Part shown: piece by piece, positions 3,038 through 61,689 of the stretch | How positions within the stretch are numbered: position 1 is the stretch's first letter | Layout of the letters: every line of letters begins with the position of its first letter | Assembly: GCA_964016885.1 (NCBI GenBank) | Contig: OZ024746.1 | Span: forward strand, 83,390,001 to 83,454,000 | DNA from: Eledone cirrhosa | Taxonomy: Eukaryota | Reading direction: 5' to 3' | DNA: 64,000 nucleotides | The notes under the pieces: generated by a model | The model's input: only the letters and a program-made list of their open reading frames with translations | Told to the model about the DNA's origin: nothing | Database searches by the model: none | Program-made: the position numbers and the translations under genes

Positions 3038-3423
3038 AATGAAATGTATGCCTTAAAAAACTTGGAAACCATTTAACTTATTAAAGCTTTAGCTAGATTT
3101 TTACAATTACATGCATCTTGCAGCAACATACCTTTCACTTAGCTAACTAAAAACTAATTTATGGCCATTTTGAAGGCCATATTCATTGAAAACACAGGAA
3201 AAACAATTTCTCTTCCAAAGCAAAACCAGTGTATTATTCACCTCCAAACCTAAGAGTGCAGTGAGTGCCCCAACCCCACTTTTAACTAAAAACCAAATAA
3301 TTTCCAATGCCTTTGAAAGCTAGATTTGCTTAAAACATCAAAAACACAAATTTCACATCCAAATTCAAATTATGGAAAGTTGTTGGGAATGTTCTCAAGG
3401 GAATGCATAAATAACACTCATAA

Positions 3424-3527
3424 TAATTGTTTTTACTTTTGGCACAAGGCCAGTAATTACCCAGTACATTATTGGTACTTTATTTTATCGACCCCGTAAG
3501 GATGAAAGGCAAAGTTAACCTCGGCTA
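3424..3527 (-). mobile_element. SINE family B 3' fragment (Nin-domain-like)
   Basis: Reverse complement of gccgaggttaactttgcctttcatccttacggggtcgataaaataaagtacc...aacaattatt, as seen at 27456 and elsewhere. Confidence 0.8.
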
Positions 3528-5266
3528 AATATAGAAAATCTGTTTCATTGTAAAATAATCTTTCCAGATATTTATGTAGAATTTGAAGTTGATGAAAATC
3601 AGCAAAATATTGATCTCTCGTTTTACCACATATTTCTCAGCTTATATACAAGTATATACTGTAACTAAAAGGATTTCAGTTGAATCAAAAGATGATTTTT
3701 AACAGAGCAAAGAGCTTGAGTGTTTTTAAACCTTTTTTTTTAAATTAAATGTCCGAGATGAGTTGCTATTCAAATTATAATCGGCTTCCTTGTTGGAGTG
3801 TACATTTGTGCTGGTACTCCATCAGATCTGACGACAAATGTTCCAGTTCTATTAATGTAGCAACATGCTCGTGAAATTAACATGTAAGTGGCTGAGCATT
3901 CAACATGACATTGTGTGATAAGGCTGACCATTGGAATTACAGTTACAGTCCATTTGGCAGGCTTTCAAACAGTTTCTCTGTACCTGATATCACTCACAAG
4001 GGATAGGTTGACCAAAGATTATGGTAAATGACACTTGCCCAAGATATTACACTGTAAGGTTATACCCAGGACCTAGATTTCAAAGCAAGCTTCTTAATCA
4101 TTTGACTATGCTACATCCACACATGACCATATCTAGGTCACCCTATATAGGGTCAAATTTGGCTGCTATTTCTTGCAGGTCAAATCACCCTGTAGAGGCT
4201 TCCTCTTTGGTTTGTTGCTAGAAAACATTATCATCAGCCCCTGATTAAGTAGCAGCCTTACAATATAAAGCTAGTACAATGAAATAATAAGACAAGGCCT
4301 ATTTTTCAGTTATAGTATCTCTACTTAGCTAAAGGACATCATCATCATCATTTTCTGTCCACGTTCCATGTTGGCTGGGTTGTTATGGTCTGATTCAGTT
4401 CTTATTTGGAGTTATTGCTCTCTTACATTGCTTCGAAGACCATATCTTGTACTTTCCAATTTTTGGCATTGTTTTTGTAACTCGATGCCCTTCTTTGCAG
4501 AGTGCACAGGGTGCATTTCGTCGAAGCACTAGTGAGGTGATGTCCTCAGTAGGACCCAAAACTACTCTCAACTCCACATTGTATTTTTGCGACTGCTAAC
4601 CGTTTTACAGAATGTACTGGGTGCATTTCATCATAACACCAACACAGGTGAGGTAATGCTCCAAGCAAGACCCAAAACTCCTCTCAACTCTATGGTGTCT
4701 CTATTTGATCGTTAACCGCTTCACACACCTTAAATAAAAGCAACTTTATCATTTTGCAGTGCCAGCTCCCATCTTCCCATCCTTATCACTCGTGTATAGC
4801 TTGGAAAGGGGTGAGCCCCCAACAAGCTGACTCGTAGATCAGACAAATTCTCTTTCCTCAGTGGTGCTCCTAACAAGCTCAATGAAGCTATTGGGAACTT
4901 TTCACCAACCTGTTATTGTCTATAAATTACATGGGAACATGTATACTACACTATGTGAAAATATATTATGGTGGAAGTGGTCTTTTGAGGTACAGTTTAT
5001 TTTATTTTTTGGTGGGATTTTAATAGGTTACTTCTTTCTCTCTCTTTCCCCCCCCCCCCCCCACCCCCTCTAAATACAATTATACCATAATACAAGCTAT
5101 AAACAGTTGCATCTTCCCTGCTACTTATGTTCTTTCACTTCTCTTTTCTGTCTCTTTTTTTCTTCACTACTCCTCTTTCTATATCTATCACTTCCTTCTC
5201 TCAATCCCTCTCAACCTAACTAACATAACATTAGACTATTTAATATCGTTTGTTGTTCATTTTCAG

Positions 5267-5599
5267 AGGTCAGGTAAAACCTTGTCGAAGCTCTGTTTGA
5301 TGCTCAACCCTAAAAAACTACAATCAGTGTTCGAGAGGAGATACTTACACTTAGATATTTGCTTCCAGATGCTTTATGAGAATTACAAATTGGTGTTAAG
5401 CAGGTTAAAACGTAAGGTATCGTCATCATCTTCATCGTTGTCATCAGATAGAAAGAAAAAACGGAAGAAGAAGAGAAAAAACAACACGACAGAAGAGGAA
5501 GAAACCTCACCACATAATAAAAGAAAGCATAGAACTAGTAAACACAAACACCACAAACGCAAACACAATAAAAATAAAGAAAATACATTAAATAAATAA
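5267..5599 (+). CDS. HAT1: Terminal coding exon, divergent HAT1-like C-terminus plus Ser/Lys/Arg/His-rich tail (putative proximal alternative last exon of HAT1)
   Basis: Acceptor ttgttcattttcag ends at 5266. The phase-0 reading is RSGKTLSKLCLMLNPKKLQSVFERRYLHLDICFQMLYENYKLVLSRLKRKVSSSSSSLSSDRKKKRKKKRK...NTLNK, with TAA at 5597-5599 and AATAAA motifs nearby (~5590-5740). The first ~47 aa align with the 54213 exon and with the recalled human HAT1 C-terminus (L.P..L ... L...FQ.L.E.Y..V..RL). Confidence 0.65.
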   Translation, partial: RSGKTLSKLCLMLNPKKLQSVFERRYLHLDICFQMLYENYKLVLSRLKRKVSSSSSSLSSDRKKKRKKKRKNNTTEEEETSPHNKRKHRTSKHKHHKRKHNKNKENTLNK

Positions 5600-6606
5600 A
5601 AACAAAAGTGGAATTTAAGGAAGATGTGGGTAGTTGTGCTAAGGATAGAAATAATTTGGAATTTGAAAGAAAAATACTTGCTACTTTTATTTGTTTTTTC
5701 TTTCTATTTTTTTTTAAATATTTCAATAAAAAAAATAAAAAAACAATTTCAAAAGAAAAAACAACTTGCTTAAATAGGAAATGTAAATTGAACCAGGAAT
5801 GAGATTTATGTGTTTAGACATGTATATATGTATTTAAATATGTATATGTATATCCACACACACAAACATCTCTCATTTCAAGTTTCAATTCCTGTGTGTG
5901 TGTGTATATATATAATCTGTGCATATTCACACACATGGCATCCAGAGTGTGAGTGGACTTGAAATTTGAAAGTATGTTAACTTAGTGTAAGCTGCTACAA
6001 CGCGAGCTTGACTATTGAATAGTTGAACCTGCTTTGGAGAAGTTTACAGTAAGCCATTGTATTTTCAAATTTTAATATATATGAGTGTGTGTATATATGT
6101 ATATGTGTGTGCGAAGGAAGGTTTAAACCTGACCACGGCACCTAGCAGTTTCAGATAGGTGTCGTTCAGGCTGATACCTTAATCCTTCCCATGCATTCAG
6201 TACTACCCTGATTTTTGATCTCACCGGTCTTAGCACTGCAGACTCTCAATATATTTATGTGTGAATATGTGTATATATATGTATATGTAAAGGCTTGTGG
6301 CTTTGTGTTGAGGGTGTTCAGTTAATGATCATAAAGTTGTGAATTCAATTCTTGGGCCGGGCAGTGTTATGTCCTTGAGTAAGACATTTTATTTCATGTC
6401 GCTCCAGTTCACTCAACAGACAAAATAAGTTGTACCAGTAATTCAAGAGACAAACCTAGTCACACAATGTCACACTGAATCTCCCTTAGAACTACATTAA
6501 AGGTGCATATGTTTGTGGAATGCTCAACCACTTAACATTTATTTAACGAGCACGCATATCCATTCATTGAATCAACTAGAGCACTTGTCATCAGAAATAG
6601 ACCAAA

Positions 6607-13740
<7,134 letters not shown>

Positions 13741-15167: not shown

Positions 15168-15520
15168 CATCATCATCATCATCATCATCATTTTACGTCC
15201 GCTTTTCCCTGCTTGCAAGGGTGGGAAGGGTCTTATTCAGCACAGCATCTCTCCACTCGTCACGGTCCCTCGTCATCTCCACCGTGAGCTTCAATGATCT
15301 GAGGTCTGTTCTCACCACCTCCGCCCATGTTTTTCGTGGTCTACCTCTACCACGTATTCCTTCAACTGGCATTTCCTGGCACTTCTTCACCCATCGGTCA
15401 TCCTCCATGCGCATCACATGTCCATACCACCTCAGTCTCCTCTCCCGTACACTACATTCTATCCCTCTCAGACACAGTTTCTCTCTCAACACATTTATGC
15501 TGGGTCGTATTCCTGGGTAA
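15168..15520 (-). mobile_element. RTE-clade LINE 3' fragment with (TGA)n tail
   Basis: Minus ORF ...RERRLRWYGHVMRMEDDRWVKK...GRGRPRKTWAEVVRTDL...RDEWR is typical of the RTE ORF C-terminus. The tail is shared with SINE family A. Confidence 0.92.
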
Positions 15521-16858
15521 TAATTAACCAAATAAATAAGACAGCCAATAAACCAACATTAGATAATACGAAACACAAGTCTGGGCAAGGTTGTTTGTGG
15601 AAGACCAGCAGTCACCCATGCATACCAGTCTCTCTTCTCCACGGGACTGATGTTGTCCAAGGCTAAGGCAAAGGCCAATACAGTTTGGTAGCAGTGACGT
15701 CACTTCATTTCTGGAGCAACTTGAAATGAAGTGTCTTGCTCGAAAACTACATATCCTGGTCCGGGAATCAAACTCACAACTCCGATTCATTATATTACCT
15801 AACAGTCAAAGCTATAAAATAAACATTGAAATATCCACTTAGCTGAACCATGTGTATGTACCGTGTATTCTTGAATATGAGCCAAGGAATATGTAACGTA
15901 AATCGTCGATGGTAGAGTCAATATTTTGTCAATTTTCACCAACTTCCAATTCTAGTTAAATAATTGTTTCTACTTTAGGCACAAGGCTAGCAATTTGAAG
16001 GGATGGAGAAAGTTGATTAAATCAACCCCAGTGCATTACTGGTACTTTATTTTATCGACCCCGTAAGCATGAAAAGCAAAGCTAACCTCAGCAGGATTTG
16101 AATTCTAGTTAAATAATGTCTAGATTTTAGCCCATTTCTCAGACATAAAATAGCTGGATCATCTTATATTTGAGTATATACGGTAAATCCTGCTCTGAAT
16201 ACTTTTGAGAAGGCTACATATGTCACTGTGTCCATTCCATATCAAAACTATCAACAGTCATCTGTTGTCATGCCAACCACATTAGCAAATGACTCCGTCA
16301 GTCATTAATTACATATATGACATTAACCAAGTTTGCCCTTTAGTCAAACTCAGAAAATCTAAATTATTCCCTATCTGTTCAAACATTTGAGACTAACGAA
16401 AGCTAAAAAATAAAACAAATAATAGAATTGAAAGTTTAATAGTAAACTCAATATTATACACCACTAACTACAGAAGCCCCTTCTGCTCCCTATTTGTTCC
16501 CAACACTTAGCCATTTTCTATTTTACTGCAAGCTCAAAATAGCCCCGAACCTTCTTAAAATCTCTCCCTCCGTGCCACAAAAGTGCCATATTAACAACTT
16601 ATCAAAACCTTAATTTAGTTACTAATTCTACCATATTTTAATATTTGGCTTTATAACACATTATCATTGGTATACAACTAGAGGCATAGGGCATCCAAGT
16701 TACCTTAAAACTGAAATCTCTAGTCTTGTTGTGAATCTTCATCATTACTGACTTATTCTTCCTTTCAATAGTGATGTTTAAATAGCTGTGTGTTTGTGTC
16801 TGCAGCACGAGGACTGGGAAGACCACAAATTCTGATTTGTGGTCTTCCCACACATGTT

Positions 16859-38694: not shown

Positions 38695-39085
38695 CATCAT
38701 CATCATCATCATCGTTTAACGTCCATCTTCCACACTAGCATGGGTTTCGACGGGAATTTTCCTACTTGAGGAATTTATCAAGTTGTCCCAGGTTTTTCTG
38801 GGTCTGCCTACTCCGTCGCTACCGTCTATTTTTATTGCCCTGCACTTTTTTATACAGCTGTCATCTTTCATGTGCATCATGTGACCGTACCAACGTAGTC
38901 TTCTCTCGAGTAAACAGCATCTGATCCCTCTTATTCCTAATTTCTCACTTAGTTCATTTATGCTTTGCCGTTCACGTATATTACTATTACACATCCAACG
39001 GAGCATGCAAGCTTCGTTCCTCTCCAGTCTGCGCAGATCCTCTGCACACAATGCCCAAGTCTCACTGCTATGTAACATTGCTGTT
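38695..39085 (-). mobile_element. RTE-clade LINE 3' fragment with deleted 3' UTR
   Basis: Minus ORF MLHSSETW...LERNEACMLRWMC...RRLRWYGHMM...GRPRKTW, with (TGA)n tail. Confidence 0.92.
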
Positions 39086-50427: not shown

Positions 50428-50959
50428 GTATATATAACGTTCATTTAATACAAACTTATAAATATCCTAACTCATTAATAAAATTGTGTGTGTGTGTTCA
50501 GGTGAGTGCGTGTTCACATTTATGTGTAATTTAGTTAATGAGCAGGAAGGGTTACTAGTGATCATATACAATGTTTGGTCTCAGCAGTTACCATCCAGAA
50601 ATAATCTATGTATGTCACTCTTATTCCAGCTCATTTCTCACTTTCCTATATCCCTGAGGATGACCTTATTAGGTCAGCTGATGATATTGGCAATAATAGA
50701 GAGACTATGATAATCCTGAAAATTTTATTGCTAAGATCTTTTCATTTTTATTAGTTTTAGATTTTTGTTTTTTATTAAAATAGCTGGTGCTAGTGCCTAT
50801 GACATCATTTTCCTTTTTTCCTTTGATGTTGTTCAAAGTAAATCACACACACATGTACACCTGGTCTGAACACAGAGGAACCAAACTCCCACTGTCATCG
50901 CCTCTGTCTCTCCCGCCCTCCCTGTTTCTCACTATTATGAGCAAATGGTGTCTTATGTG

Positions 50960-51400
50960 CTGGCCACCCCGCAGCTCCAACGGACAGAATAGAGAAGGTG
51001 TTTCCCCGGAGGATGGTGAGGGAGATACGCTGGAAGAGCTATTCCAGCTCTCGAGGCTCACTCCTGTGACTAGCCAGCTCTGCACTGATGGTTGTGAGTG
51101 GGAGTTGGCCCCTAGGCCTAGGATACCAGAGGTCTCCACTGCTATGGGCTCAATTGCAAACCTGTTGGAGAGTGACCAATATTTGGAGGGTTTACCTTCC
51201 TCAACCCAAAGTCCAGCAGTGCTTGGGTTTTGTCGTGGCTGGAGAAGCATAGATGGAAGTGGGAAGGTTGCAAATGAGCCATGTGCAGGTTATATAACTA
51301 TATACTGCTTGCCATGGAGGTGGATGCTGTTTGACATATTGTGGGATGTACTAGGCTTTCCTTGATGGCCTGGGTTGGATGGGATATGAGTGAAGAGGGG
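50960..51400 (-). mobile_element. CRE-like (restriction-like endonuclease) non-LTR retrotransposon 3' remnant
   Basis: Minus strand reads EEGKPSKYWSLSNRFAIEPIAVETSGILG and, after a frameshift, LFQRISLTILRGNTFSIL. This matches the recalled K..KY..L....P.AVET.G and LFQR.S..IQRGN motifs. Confidence 0.7.
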
Positions 51401-54212: not shown

Positions 54213-54389
54213 AAAAACGGTCGGGACTTTAAAAAATTAGAAACTATCCTTCAACCTGATGAATTATCAGCCACGATGCCAAACCTAAATGCTGAACAGA
54301 AGTATGCTCTGCTTGATAAACAATTCAACGAGACAGTGCAGATCTATCACCACGTCATTGATCGTTTGCAGTGTTTGGCAGAGCCTTAA
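54213..54389 (+). CDS. HAT1: Terminal coding exon of histone acetyltransferase type B catalytic subunit (canonical C-terminus)
   Basis: A long poly-T tract plus cag acceptor ends at 54212. The phase-0 reading is KNGRDFKKLETILQPDELSATMPNLNAEQKYALLDKQFNETVQIYHHVIDRLQCLAEP*. It aligns without gaps to the recalled human HAT1 end KKQRDLAKMRKCLRPEELTNQMNQIEISMQHEQLEESFQELVEDYRRVIERLAQE. Confidence 0.85.
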   Translation, partial: KNGRDFKKLETILQPDELSATMPNLNAEQKYALLDKQFNETVQIYHHVIDRLQCLAEP

Positions 54390-55780: not shown

Positions 55781-56715
55781 AAGTTTTCTGGAAGAAGGGG
55801 TTGGGTACTAGAGTAGGGGAGCAAGATTGATGCTGGTTTTCCATTCCTGAAATAAAGAAGGTTTGTGTTGTCACCCGGAAATGAGTAATGGGTTCATAGT
55901 AAAATAAAAGAGTAACCAACATTGAATTACCTCTAATCATGCATGATCCTCCACTGAAACAAAGCCTTCACCGTCATCTAATATGAAAGCCAACCCATGT
56001 TCTGTTCACATTAACTTGAGCTGCATACCAACTATATTTATTCCTTTGATCCCATTATAACCCTTTCATAACCATCTATTTCAATTAATTAATTGAGGAA
56101 AAGTAACTTAACATATGGTTCTTATATAAAATTATGTTGGAAAAATGAATAGTTTTGTTTGATAGGACCAGAGCTAATATTGACCAGGTTGGCAATGAGG
56201 GACTACTTTGGGTGTCTCCTCTTTCAACCACATTGCACTTATGTTTTTTTTTTATCTGTTCAAAATACTTGCCTAGTTATAAGCATCATCATTTACCACA
56301 TCTATATATCTATATATGTATAAAGAGATCCCCCATAACTCCTTGTGGAGTCGTAGAGGCACAGTTATACGACATCTCTAGGGTGCTTTTAAACCTGGCA
56401 GAGCCCAACCCTTTCCAGGTATGAGCACAGCTGATTTTTTCTATAGATAAGGAATTGGCTCCAGTACTGGACTAGTACTTTTTTATCGACCTCGAAAGGA
56501 TGAAAGTTGACGACGGCGGGATTTGAGCTCAGAGCACGCAATGAGGTGGGACAAATACTGCACCGCATTCTTTCCAACGTCTTAACGACTTTGTTAATTC
56601 GCCTTTTATATATATATATATATATATATGTAGGAGGTGAGTTTTATTGTAGTACAATAAAGCAATGCAGATATCGGATAAGAAGCACTCTACAGTTTGT
56701 GGGACTGGAGTATGC

Positions 56716-57058
56716 ATAATATAAGATCAAAAGATGGTTAAAGGAGTTCCATATATTTTATTATGCGCATTTCAAAAACAAACATCATCAAACAATAATA
56801 TTTGTGTTTTCATCAGATAAAACAGGAGAACATGATATGAAGGCTAAAAAAACACTTGTTGATAGTGCAGTTTTAAATCAACATATCATATGTTGATTTA
56901 AAACTGCACTATCAACAAGTGTTTTTTTAGCCTTCATATCATGTTCTCCTGTTTTATCTGATGAAAACACAAATATTATTGTTTGATGATGTTTGTTTTT
57001 GAAATGCGCATAATAAAATATATGGAACTCCTTTAACCATCTTTTGATCTTATATTAT
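56716..57058. repeat. Perfect palindrome, 171-bp arms, 1-nt spacer (56887)
   Basis: By eye the right arm is the exact reverse complement of the left. Confidence 0.95.
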
Positions 57059-57075
57059 ATATATATATATATATA

Positions 57076-58289
57076 TGAGGTGTGTCAGAAAAGTTCCAGG
57101 ACAAAAGATTTATTTCAAACCCAAACTTCACACTAAGACTTTTCTCCTTCAAAGTAATCCCCCTGGAGTATGTAACTGTAATCTTAGCTCTGCAGCGATC
57201 ATACTTTTTTCTTCATAATTTTATATACATGGAGGCTTAGTGGTTAGAGCATTGGCCTTGCAATCAAAAAGTTGTGAGTTCAATTCTCAGATAGGGTGAT
57301 GTGTTGTTCCCTTGAGCAAGACACTTTATTTCGCATTGCTCCAGTTTACTCAGCTGTAGAAATGAGATGATAGGGACTGGGGTGCCTATCATTCCACTGT
57401 AAAGTGGTCGTGTAGGTGCCACGGAAAAAAAGCACTCAGCACTCACTGTAAATGAGGTTGGTGTTAGGAAGGGCATCCAGCTGTAGAAATCAAGCCAGAA
57501 TCAGTTCCCGTCCCACCCTTGCAAGCAGGGAAAAGCGGACGTAAAAATGATGATGATGATGATGTCCTTTGTTTCAGGTCGTCAAGCAATGAGCACAGAG
57601 CAACGAACGGTTGGGGAAAACTCCGTCAGAAACACTGGGATTGCTGCAGCAAGTGTATGGAGATGAGACGATGTCACGCTCACGTGTTTTTGAGTGGTGC
57701 AAGAGGTTTAAAGAAGGACGCGAGGACATGGAAGATGACCCCAGGAGCGGAAGGCCTTCAACAACCAGGACTGATGTCAACGTTGAGCGCGTCAGGCAGA
57801 TGGTGCGTAGCGATCGTAGGCTGACTGTTCGACTGATGGCAAATGAGCTGGGCATGAACCGGCACAGTGTCTGGAAGATTCTCACTGAAGATTTGGACAT
57901 GCGGAAAGTCTGCGCGAAGATGGTGCCAAAACTGCTGAACAATGACCAGAAGGGTCGACGCATGCAAGTGTGCCAGGACATCCTCGAGCGTCTTGAAATC
58001 GACTTGCTAGGGACAGTCATCACCGGTGATGAGTCATGGATGTTCAAGGGGGGTCATCAAGAGGACCCGTTTTGAAGACGTAGACGACATCAAAAAGGCC
58101 ATGACGACGGAATTGCGGAGGAACCCAGAAGAATCCTTCCAGGAGTGCATGCAAGCGTGCCAGAAAAGGATAGAAAAGTGCATTAGACTCCAGGGGGATT
58201 ACTTTGAAGGATAAAACTCTTAGTGTGAAGCTTGGGTTTGAAATAAATCTTTTGTGACATCAGTCCTGGAACTTTTCTGACACACCTCG
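57076..58289 (+). mobile_element. Internally deleted mariner transposon (transposase pseudogene ~57589-58214) carrying a SINE insertion
   Basis: TIR gaggtgtgtcagaaaagttccaggac is flanked by TA. The protein reads MSTEQR../GKTPSET...VFEWCKRFKEGRED..DDPRSGRP...KVCAKMVPK..TGDESW, jumps over most of the catalytic domain, and resumes at RFEDVDDIK...GDYFEG. Confidence 0.93.
57230..57564 (+). mobile_element. SINE family A, near full length, inside the mariner 5' region
   Basis: tRNA-like head ggcttagtggttagagc...gagttcaattctc and (tga)n tail. Confidence 0.9.
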
Positions 58290-59097
58290 TATGTGTGTGT
58301 GTGTATATATAAATATATATATACTCTTTTACTGGTGTTTCAACTCTCTCACTCTCGTTTCTTTACCTAAAAATGGACATGATTCTGATGAATGGACTGG
58401 AAAATATTCTCTATAAGTTGCTGAGAATTCCCATCAGCAGAGCTGTTCAGAAAAATAATTGGATAGGTCTTAGAAAATATCAGTTTTTCAACTATACAAA
58501 GATATACTATGATGTCACATAATGTTAATAAATTTAATAACTTATGTGATCCATTGAATATCTTAACACTTTTATTAGTTAAAAATACCCTTTCATGCAT
58601 ATAATTAATCATTTCTCCTTGTATTATCCAGAAGGTTAATTACAACATTAGTATATGTGTATGGACACTATCCTGGATATTCAAAATATTGATATGGACA
58701 ATTGGCAATTTCTCCAATAATTGGTAATGAGGGGGAGAGTAGTTTCATTTCTGTCCACAAAGACATTCATTCATCTTCTCCTAAACAGACTTTTTTTAGA
58801 CTAACACACAATAGATATCCACTGTTGTGGCTCACTGTCCTTTATGAAGAATGCTCACTAATTCAGCAAACCAGGCAGAATGTGTTGACCCAGATATCAT
58901 GTTTGTTCACTACAGAATATGTTGTCCAAGATATCACTTTTGTTCACTGTAGAATGGACTGTAAATTTGGCCAGAGATTTTACAACTGGATACCCTTCCT
59001 AACACCAAACAAATTTACAGTATGGAACTGGATGGTACCGTTATGAGGACGTGAAATATAGAAAAACAAACGTCCACCATTTTATGCATTTCCTATT

Positions 59098-60834: not shown

Positions 60835-61482
60835 ATCATCATCGTTTAACGTCCATCTTCCATGCTTGCATGGGTTTGGACAGGAATTTTCCCACTTGAG
60901 GCAAGATTGGTTGTCTGGCGGGTTTTCTACAGCTGGATGCCCTTCTTAACACCAACCACGTTTACAGTGTGGACTGGGAGGTTTTTACCATGTTACCTAC
61001 ACGGCTACATTACAGCGTGGACTGTGTGTTTTTTTGTTGTGACACCTGCACGACCTCATTTATTTCGGACTGGATGCTGTGGTACCAACATAACTTTACA
61101 TCGAAAGGGGGGGTAGTGGGACAGGGGTGTATTTTTGTTAAGAGGTGCCTACTGACTGTAGGTTTCGCTTTGTACTTAGGCAAGGCGGGTCTTCTGTATT
61201 ACTGTGTAGCGCCAAAGATCTCGGTCCAGTGACATTGTCTTGGAAAGGTGTAAGTGTGTGAGGTCGGAATTTATCAAGTCGTCCCAGGTTTTTCTGGGTC
61301 TGCCTACTCCATGGCTACCGTCTATTTTTATCGCCCTGCACTTTTTTATACAGCTGTCTTTCATGCGCATTACGTGACCATATCAACGTAGTCTTCTCTC
61401 GAGTAAACAATATCTGATCCCTCTTATTCCTAATTTCTCCCTTAGTTCGTTTATGCTTTGCCGTTCACGTATATTACTATTA
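60835..61482 (-). mobile_element. RTE-clade LINE 3' fragment with intact 3' UTR
   Basis: Minus ORF MKDSCIKKCRAIKIDGSHGVGRPRKTWDDLINSDL...RDLWR. Near-identical to 38760-38990. Confidence 0.92.
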
Positions 61483-61689
61483 GTAGTGGCTTTGAAAATA
61501 CTGGAATCTGTATACTGGCAAATTAAAATGGAAATTGAAACAAGTAGTAGAGGAAGCTAAGCCTCCTAAACCAAACATCATAGTTAGCCTATGAATTTTT
61601 CAGTCTACCATCATATGTGATAATTTCATTGTCCAAATATTAAAGAATGGCTATCAGAATTCTGCAGAATGGTACCAGTCATTTGTATA

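Follow-up and report, generated by a model that had tools for sequence, protein, structure and literature searches.

HAT1 is a type-B acetyltransferase that marks newly made histones, acting on K5 and K12 of free H4 together with RbAp46 and not on nucleosomal H4. The 64-kb stretch of octopod DNA analysed here (Eledone cirrhosa; hereafter "the window", meaning the whole stretch) raises the question of whether a HAT1 gene can end in two different ways and, if so, whether one of these ends, which carries a long basic tail, changes where the enzyme works. The original proposal was that exon choice could switch HAT1 between a canonical form and a nuclear, nucleolar or chromatin-tethered form, possibly depending on tissue (for example testis or neurons). 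Two segments of the window carry HAT1-like coding sequence:

5267..5407, forward strand: portion of the proximal alternative last exon with HAT1 homology (47 aa, phase 0, five loop residues fewer)
54213..54389, forward strand: distal, canonical HAT1 last exon (58 aa plus stop, phase 0; profile E = 5.7e-23)

The two exons are homologous, each has its own stop codon, and they follow acceptors of the same phase 0 (ttttcag immediately before 5267 and cag before 54213). The frame entered at acceptor 5267 runs for 110 codons to a TAA at 5597-5599. The distal exon is identical at 56 of 58 positions to the C-terminus of the X2 isoform of HAT1 from O. vulgaris/O. sinensis. We searched the 2012 frames of the window with a profile of 40 last-exon segments, all taken from HAT1 proteins outside Octopus (one of 41 was dropped as truncated); it matched the proximal exon with E = 1.4e-5, from profile position 1 placed at the acceptor, and the next match after these two exons had E = 0.98. 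Because a profile derived from HAT1 ends matches from the acceptor on, the segment 5267-5599 is, judged by this match, a copy of the last exon of HAT1 that has since diverged. In tblastn searches with two full-length Octopus HAT1 proteins, the proximal exon was recovered at 29% identity (E = 0.045 and 0.059) and no further HAT1 exon was detected in the 64-kb window, none lying between the two. The copies are 49 kb apart and their DNA shows no similarity beyond low-complexity matches. Pairwise BLASTP gave no alignment between them, neither reached the Pfam cut-off, and a PDB search with the distal exon returned chance matches only. The best explanation is that the window holds the 3' end of an octopod HAT1 gene, and that an old tandem duplication gave this gene two last exons whose use is mutually exclusive. 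Another frame, at 3519-3665, was considered as a HAT1 exon and rejected on Pfam and tblastn results; it partly overlaps a high-copy repeat. A short interspersed repeat at 3417-3525 has a depth in the millions in all four sequencing runs described below, X3 included.

The proximal exon and its tail also occur in relatives, known as automatic database annotations: XP_029634299.1 (O. sinensis isoform X1, 461 aa), CAI9719859.1 (O. vulgaris, 461 aa) and P0006 (200 aa). The same protein cluster contains the O. sinensis isoforms X2 (412 aa, distal exon) and X3 (357 aa), and the first 354 residues are common to X1, X2 and X3. Thus, in the O. sinensis/O. vulgaris annotation, both last exons follow one and the same upstream part of 354 residues. 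Isoform X3 (P0003) is annotated with yet another HAT1 end, which adds only three residues to the shared exon; a pattern search of the window found no mini-exon matching it. In two O. bimaculoides models (P0002 and P0010), an insert of 100–140 aa, probably an error of the gene models, replaces some of the GNAT core, and two short acidic Logan proteins without HAT1 likeness (P0007 and P0008) are placed in the Octopus HAT1 cluster by clustering noise.

The stretch is present in four sequencing runs of one study, none of which is on record as RNA. Runs X1, X2 and X4 come from a single sample, possibly the very one from which the window was sequenced, and are therefore not independent support; run X3 corresponds to a second sample. 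The contigs of runs X1 and X2 cross the intron continuously, from 5019 and 5053 to 5824. The contig of run X3, a run whose kind is not on record, is 452 nt long with a depth of 10.9 and covers 5267-5689 from contig position 30 with no mismatches and no gaps, so that it starts exactly at acceptor 5267 after 29 off-window letters. Logan contigs are described as non-branching paths at k = 31 (10.1101/2024.07.30.605881). The 29 off-window letters and the first A of the exon make up a 30-letter overlap. Such an overlap would arise where the path forks towards a sibling exon with the same initial A, and the distal exon does begin with A. This suggests that both last exons are spliced in the sample of run X3, an argument drawn from the offset of the fork and not from the off-window letters themselves. 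Several flanking intron bins have no depth in run X3, and this missing cover was not counted as evidence.

A different reading would make the proximal segment a leftover of a partial duplication that is not expressed, or the last part of another gene, a HAT1 paralogue. Its similarity to the distal exon is weak, with no pairwise BLASTP match, and the upstream exons lie outside the window, both of which would suit such an origin. However, the stretch between the two exons holds no other HAT1 exon, O. sinensis X1 and X2 have an identical 354-residue N-terminus, and the X3 contig begins at the acceptor; this reading is largely refuted and retains next to no probability. The tailed isoform is very likely real and translated. 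It had also been suspected that a donor near 5417 might remove the tail from transcripts. There are indeed GT dinucleotides within the exon at 5412 and 5417, but the X3 contig runs unbroken over both and the suspicion was not borne out; since contigs drop rare variants, these donors may nevertheless see minor use.

The signals on either side of the exon are as follows:

5216..5266, forward strand: candidate branch-point motifs and acceptor (CTAAC twice at 5216-5224; AG at 5265-5266; short, interrupted pyrimidine tract)
5600..5790, forward strand: candidate 3' UTR of the proximal exon (AATAAA at 5725 and 5734; contig cover to 5689)

The proximal acceptor looks weaker than the T-run acceptor of the distal exon, and the CTAAC motifs upstream of it would serve as branch points. 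The segment 5600..5790 is probably a short 3' UTR, and the GT at 5783 is a possible donor for onward splicing. Accordingly one may ask whether the exon is an attenuator or poison exon that diverts transcripts to decay, for instance by splicing onward past the stop, the protein itself being irrelevant. The donor-like GT at 5783 does lie 3' of the stop, the 3' end is placed by AATAAA motifs only, and six more of these hexamers occur inside the tail coding region. Yet the X3 contig passes all six, as well as the GT sites at 5608-5636, and reaches 5689 (contigs giving no RNA ends); moreover, amino-acid conservation is centred on the HAT1-homologous helix, and two named species have the exon annotated within a complete coding isoform. 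We regard a poison exon as highly improbable.

Several repeats occur elsewhere in the window. Just downstream of the proximal exon, a (TA)/(TG) microsatellite of ~7 kb with a GC content of 10–15% extends over about 6610-13740, interrupted by a unique island at ~7260-7660. A degenerate tandem repeat with a unit of ~21–24 nt and open frames on both strands occupies 2190-2450. A near-perfect palindrome at 56711-57063 (176-nt arms, 99% complementary, 1-nt spacer) points to an inverted duplication of recent date or else to a fold-back in the assembly. Nearby, inverted repeats at 57056-57169 and 58187-58309 flank broken frames at 57593-58211 (all within 57056-58309), which we take to resemble a Tc1/mariner transposase. 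Three related frames on the minus strand (15196-15558, 38719-39084 and 61179-61556) presumably resemble the 3' end of RTE-type LINE proteins. Within the last intron there is also a non-repetitive open frame of 193 codons (50784-51362), with a 148-codon frame on the opposite strand.

The tail itself can be divided into four blocks:

5408..5449, forward strand: block 1, KRKV, a Ser run (TCA-like triplets) and Asp; longer in P0004-P0006
5450..5479, forward strand: block 2, ten K/R in a row with 5 K[KR]x[KR] matches
5480..5518, forward strand: block 3, Glu-containing spacer, TTEEEE in the window species
5519..5599, forward strand: block 4, Lys/His-rich end with TAA at 5597-5599; HKHHK core common to P0004-P0006

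As first described, the frame stays open for some 60 residues past the HAT1-homologous part: translation of 5408-5596 yields 63 residues, with 25 K/R, 6 H, 10 S, 6 D/E and a pI of 11.2. The KRK, the Ser run, DRKKKRKKKRK, TTEEEE and the Lys/His stretch KRKHRTSKHKHHKRKH are all present in it, and the distal exon ends soon past the homologous helix, with its stop 5–6 residues later. Choosing the proximal exon thus replaces the last 58 residues by 107–110, raises the net charge from −3 to +22 and turns a 48 kDa protein into one of 54 kDa, with a whole-protein pI of 9.4 for the tailed form versus 6.4 for the canonical one.

An open frame of this size is easily obtained in such DNA. The tail DNA is 54% A and composed of TCA-like, AAG-like and AAACAC-like repeats, and its +1 frame is likewise open (60 codons) and basic. 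A 189-nt open stretch arose by chance in 1.2% of mononucleotide shuffles and in 4.2% of samples from a first-order Markov model; of 39811 intron positions, 1993 (5.0%) are open for 189 nt. Elsewhere in the window, 20 or more K/R within a 63-mer are reached only in a (GA)n microsatellite. Taken in one species alone, the open basic tail is only modestly beyond chance. What lifts it above chance is that its frame and block order are kept in three other records, together with the contig that begins at the acceptor. K[KR]x[KR] is the classical monopartite NLS consensus. All four tails have 3–5 matches to it, in a segment predicted to be disordered (pLDDT <50), and the canonical form (412 aa) has none, in agreement with the nuclear signal originally expected from the poly-K/R clusters. 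In canonical P0001, residues 346-362 form a loose bipartite-NLS-like pattern across the last junction, also seen in Acanthosepion, whose second half is changed in the proximal exon.

Conservation is unequal along the exon. In comparison with O. sinensis isoform X1, the helix part is identical at 43 of 47 positions and the tail at 36 of 52 aligned columns (Fisher p = 0.006); for P0006 the figures are 43/47 and 32/54 (p = 0.0002), the tail identity being inflated by low-complexity alignment. The better conservation of the helix part points to selection on the protein. The order Ser run, K/R block, Glu spacer and K/H end is kept across several length changes, as is the charge (21–25 K/R in all four tails), although the tail indels fall in 3- and 6-nt repeats, which preserve the frame even without selection. 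Relatives were compared at the protein level, and the comparison comprises only two independent lineages, since P0004-P0006 are near-identical in the helix part. In the window species, the Ser run is 8 residues shorter and the terminal end 6 residues longer than in O. sinensis X1/O. vulgaris, and the spacer is more acidic; its K/R block has 10 residues, versus 8 at the same place in P0004-P0006. Two observations that would have spoken against the tail, orthologues stopping right after SRL and frameshifts in relatives, did not materialize: in all three tailed records the protein continues past this point, with no frameshift at the protein level. The acidic CK2-type patch fared worse, as TTEE/TEEE exists in the window species only, relatives having CTAEQKE at this place and SPLE, elsewhere in the tail, as their sole S/T-x-x-D/E.

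Among HAT1 proteins, an end of this kind is rare. Our survey of 225 sequences (223 proteins, many of them redundant, plus the two window exons) identified the last helix in 134. Without the four proximal-type ends, 119 of 130 stop no more than 10 residues past this helix (median 4); only four extend at least 25 residues beyond it, none of them Lys/Arg-rich, and none of the 130 has a basic tail like the proximal one. No such tail is found in the other lineages sampled. Likewise, no proximal-type exon outside Octopus was found among the best 150 of 474 matches at 50% clustering or in cluster look-ups, including three members of the Acanthosepion cluster, clustering being a procedure that hides isoforms. 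A search of the proximal exon against proteins of 60–193 aa scored none of 131 candidates, and none of 590 pattern matches in JGI metagenome contigs was confirmed. Five Daphnia HAT1 models of 526–622 aa (P0021, P0026, P0027, P0032 and P0034) also contain PF04670, reflecting either a fusion or the recurrent merging of neighbouring genes. In a tree of 25 last exons, the proximal stem was much longer than the distal one (2.4 versus 0.35 changes per column), with crowns of 0.096 and 0.03, respectively. Topologies joining the proximal exon to its Octopus distal counterpart (p-AU 0.44) or to Acanthosepion (p-AU 0.49) both escaped rejection, and the tree therefore gives no date for the duplication.

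The exon swap leaves the catalytic motif untouched. The window itself contains the two last exons only, and full-length domains were read from Octopus orthologues: the products in the P0004/P0001 cluster have PF10394 and PF21183 and, together with the PDB matches, show Hat1_N, the GNAT core and the HAT1 C-terminal domain. The tailed, full-length P0004 matches human HAT1 (E = 1.2e-104) and its predicted fold superposes onto 2P0W (TM 0.96 by target, rmsd 1.2), one of the available HAT1/KAT1 structures (2P0W, 6VO5 and 9MJG from human; 1BOB, 4PSW and 7XAY from yeast). E266/D267 of P0004 align to the human catalytic motif in the shared part, which for the window species lies outside the window; as far as these alignments go, the catalytic core is shown to be common to both isoforms. 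The AlphaFold models of the O. sinensis isoforms X1 and X2 coincide in the core that both share. For X1, helices are predicted at 360-366 and 369-402, with block-mean pLDDT of 84–95 over 371-400, and a tail (residues 405-461) with pLDDT <50; in X2 the last helix spans 381-409. The confidence of the X1 helix partly reflects distal-type ends, because these dominate its alignment. The five PDB sequence matches end their coverage at residue 327, before the swapped region, leaving out the last ~80 residues.

These data bear on the possibility that selection acted on the altered C-terminal helix, as a different surface for partners, and that the tail is a tolerated read-through into simple repeats after loss of the stop. 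The helix part is much better conserved than the tail, and the proximal helix, after its long stem, changed little among octopods; the tail is encoded by A-rich, repeat-built DNA; and no PDB match extends past residue 327, which leaves room for such a role of the helix. Nevertheless, stops are easily gained in A/T-rich DNA, and the frame, the block order and the K/R content were maintained in all four tails; nor is a long tail usual in HAT1, given how soon after the helix most other ends stop. We consider a neutral tail unlikely, if still deserving serious consideration. Alternatively, the tail might regulate the enzyme directly, as a lysine-rich, histone-tail-like competitor for acidic partners (RbAp46, NASP) or for the substrate groove, or as a site of acetylation, phosphorylation, hydroxylation or polyphosphate binding. 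Its disorder, its 25 K/R and its long Ser run agree with this, and lysine-rich disordered regions are described as modification targets (PMC9371714). However, the CK2-type site is not conserved and the unbroken K/R block fits import signals more directly, so that direct regulation seems very unlikely.

How would such a tail affect localisation? HAT1 is reported to be predominantly nuclear by immunofluorescence (PMC13494561, PMC11616720), nuclear localisation is said to be of importance to what yeast Hat1 does (PMC11616720), and human Hat1 is described as an import cargo of Xpo7, whose block abolishes its nuclear localisation (PMC6028547). In these accounts its site of action is debated, with isoform-specific localisation suggested and unsettled (PMC13494561, PMC10137880, PMC11616720, PMC10092946). 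The original proposal of a switch by exon choice therefore holds in part: there are two alternative HAT1 last exons and the tail is kept and read through, but the cytoplasmic-versus-nuclear contrast is weak. Canonical HAT1 being already mostly nuclear according to the cited work, a plain cytoplasm-to-nucleus switch is unlikely.

We favour, at somewhat better than even confidence, the view that the tail is an import and retention module, namely an autonomous import signal plus a polybasic tether, added through an octopod alternative last exon to an unchanged core. It probably gives HAT1 its own way into the nucleus as well as a hold there. According to this model, transcripts spliced at the proximal acceptor, the weaker of the two, and ended at the poly(A) site of that exon would encode a 54 kDa HAT1 whose K/R block may act as an autonomous importin-alpha-type import signal, the canonical form having none. 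The Lys/His end would be an electrostatic tether to nucleic acids or to the acidic disordered regions of chaperones or nucleolar proteins. Exon choice would then switch between a shuttling, partner- or Xpo7-dependent HAT1 and one that is constitutively imported, more strongly retained and possibly enriched in the nucleolus. Against the import part, an extra NLS may change little in an enzyme that is mostly nuclear anyway, and the readiness with which A-rich DNA yields open basic frames also counts against the model. Lysine blocks with acidic spacers are described as characteristic of nucleolar disordered regions (10.1101/2022.11.05.515292), and the tail resembles such K-block regions in composition only. 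The nearest Atlas clusters, with scores of 0.82–0.85, are the Lys/His tails of NKAPD1 and CIR1; at values <0.9, with low recognition value, this is a likeness of composition without homology. It is distinctly unlikely that octopods have evolved, through the exon duplication, a second HAT1 tethered to chromatin or nucleoli by its polybasic tail, in which the type-B enzyme would act in a type-A-like manner on nucleosomes or rDNA chromatin, with last-exon choice turning it on only in certain cells (post-mitotic neurons or germ cells, for instance).

A review of 2026 names both the workplace of HAT1, cytosol or nucleus, and the role of its isoforms as unsettled (PMC13494561). Two natural isoforms that share their catalytic core but differ in the last exon offer a test of the HAT1 C-terminus, and could show whether the import route or nuclear tethering alters its substrates. 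If functional, the octopus tail is a lineage-specific change to the core chromatin machinery; if neutral, the locus is an ordinary duplicated last exon. We found no literature on the tailed octopus isoform in the sources covered, whose scope excluded the supplementary tables of octopus genome papers and most subscription journals.

A duplicated alternative last exon is a known architecture, and the HAT1 isoform is already in the NCBI annotation. Compared with the HAT1 of other lineages, the octopods have a duplicated last exon with one copy only ~29% identical and extended by a basic tail of 60–63 aa. Human HAT1a and HAT1b (418 and 334 aa) offer a parallel, as isoform-dependent localisation has been suggested for HAT1 (PMC10137880, PMC13494561). 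However, these human forms differ by lost length, with doubt voiced in a review as to splicing or proteolysis as their origin, whereas in octopus the difference lies in a last exon that was duplicated and has gained sequence. The closest likeness in architecture is with Drosophila pip, PGRP-LC and CG42235, which are described as having homologous tandem terminal exons picked one at a time (PMC9013439), as in the octopod pair. Unlike these Drosophila cases, the octopod exons are separated by 49 kb and have lost all DNA similarity save for low-complexity sequence.
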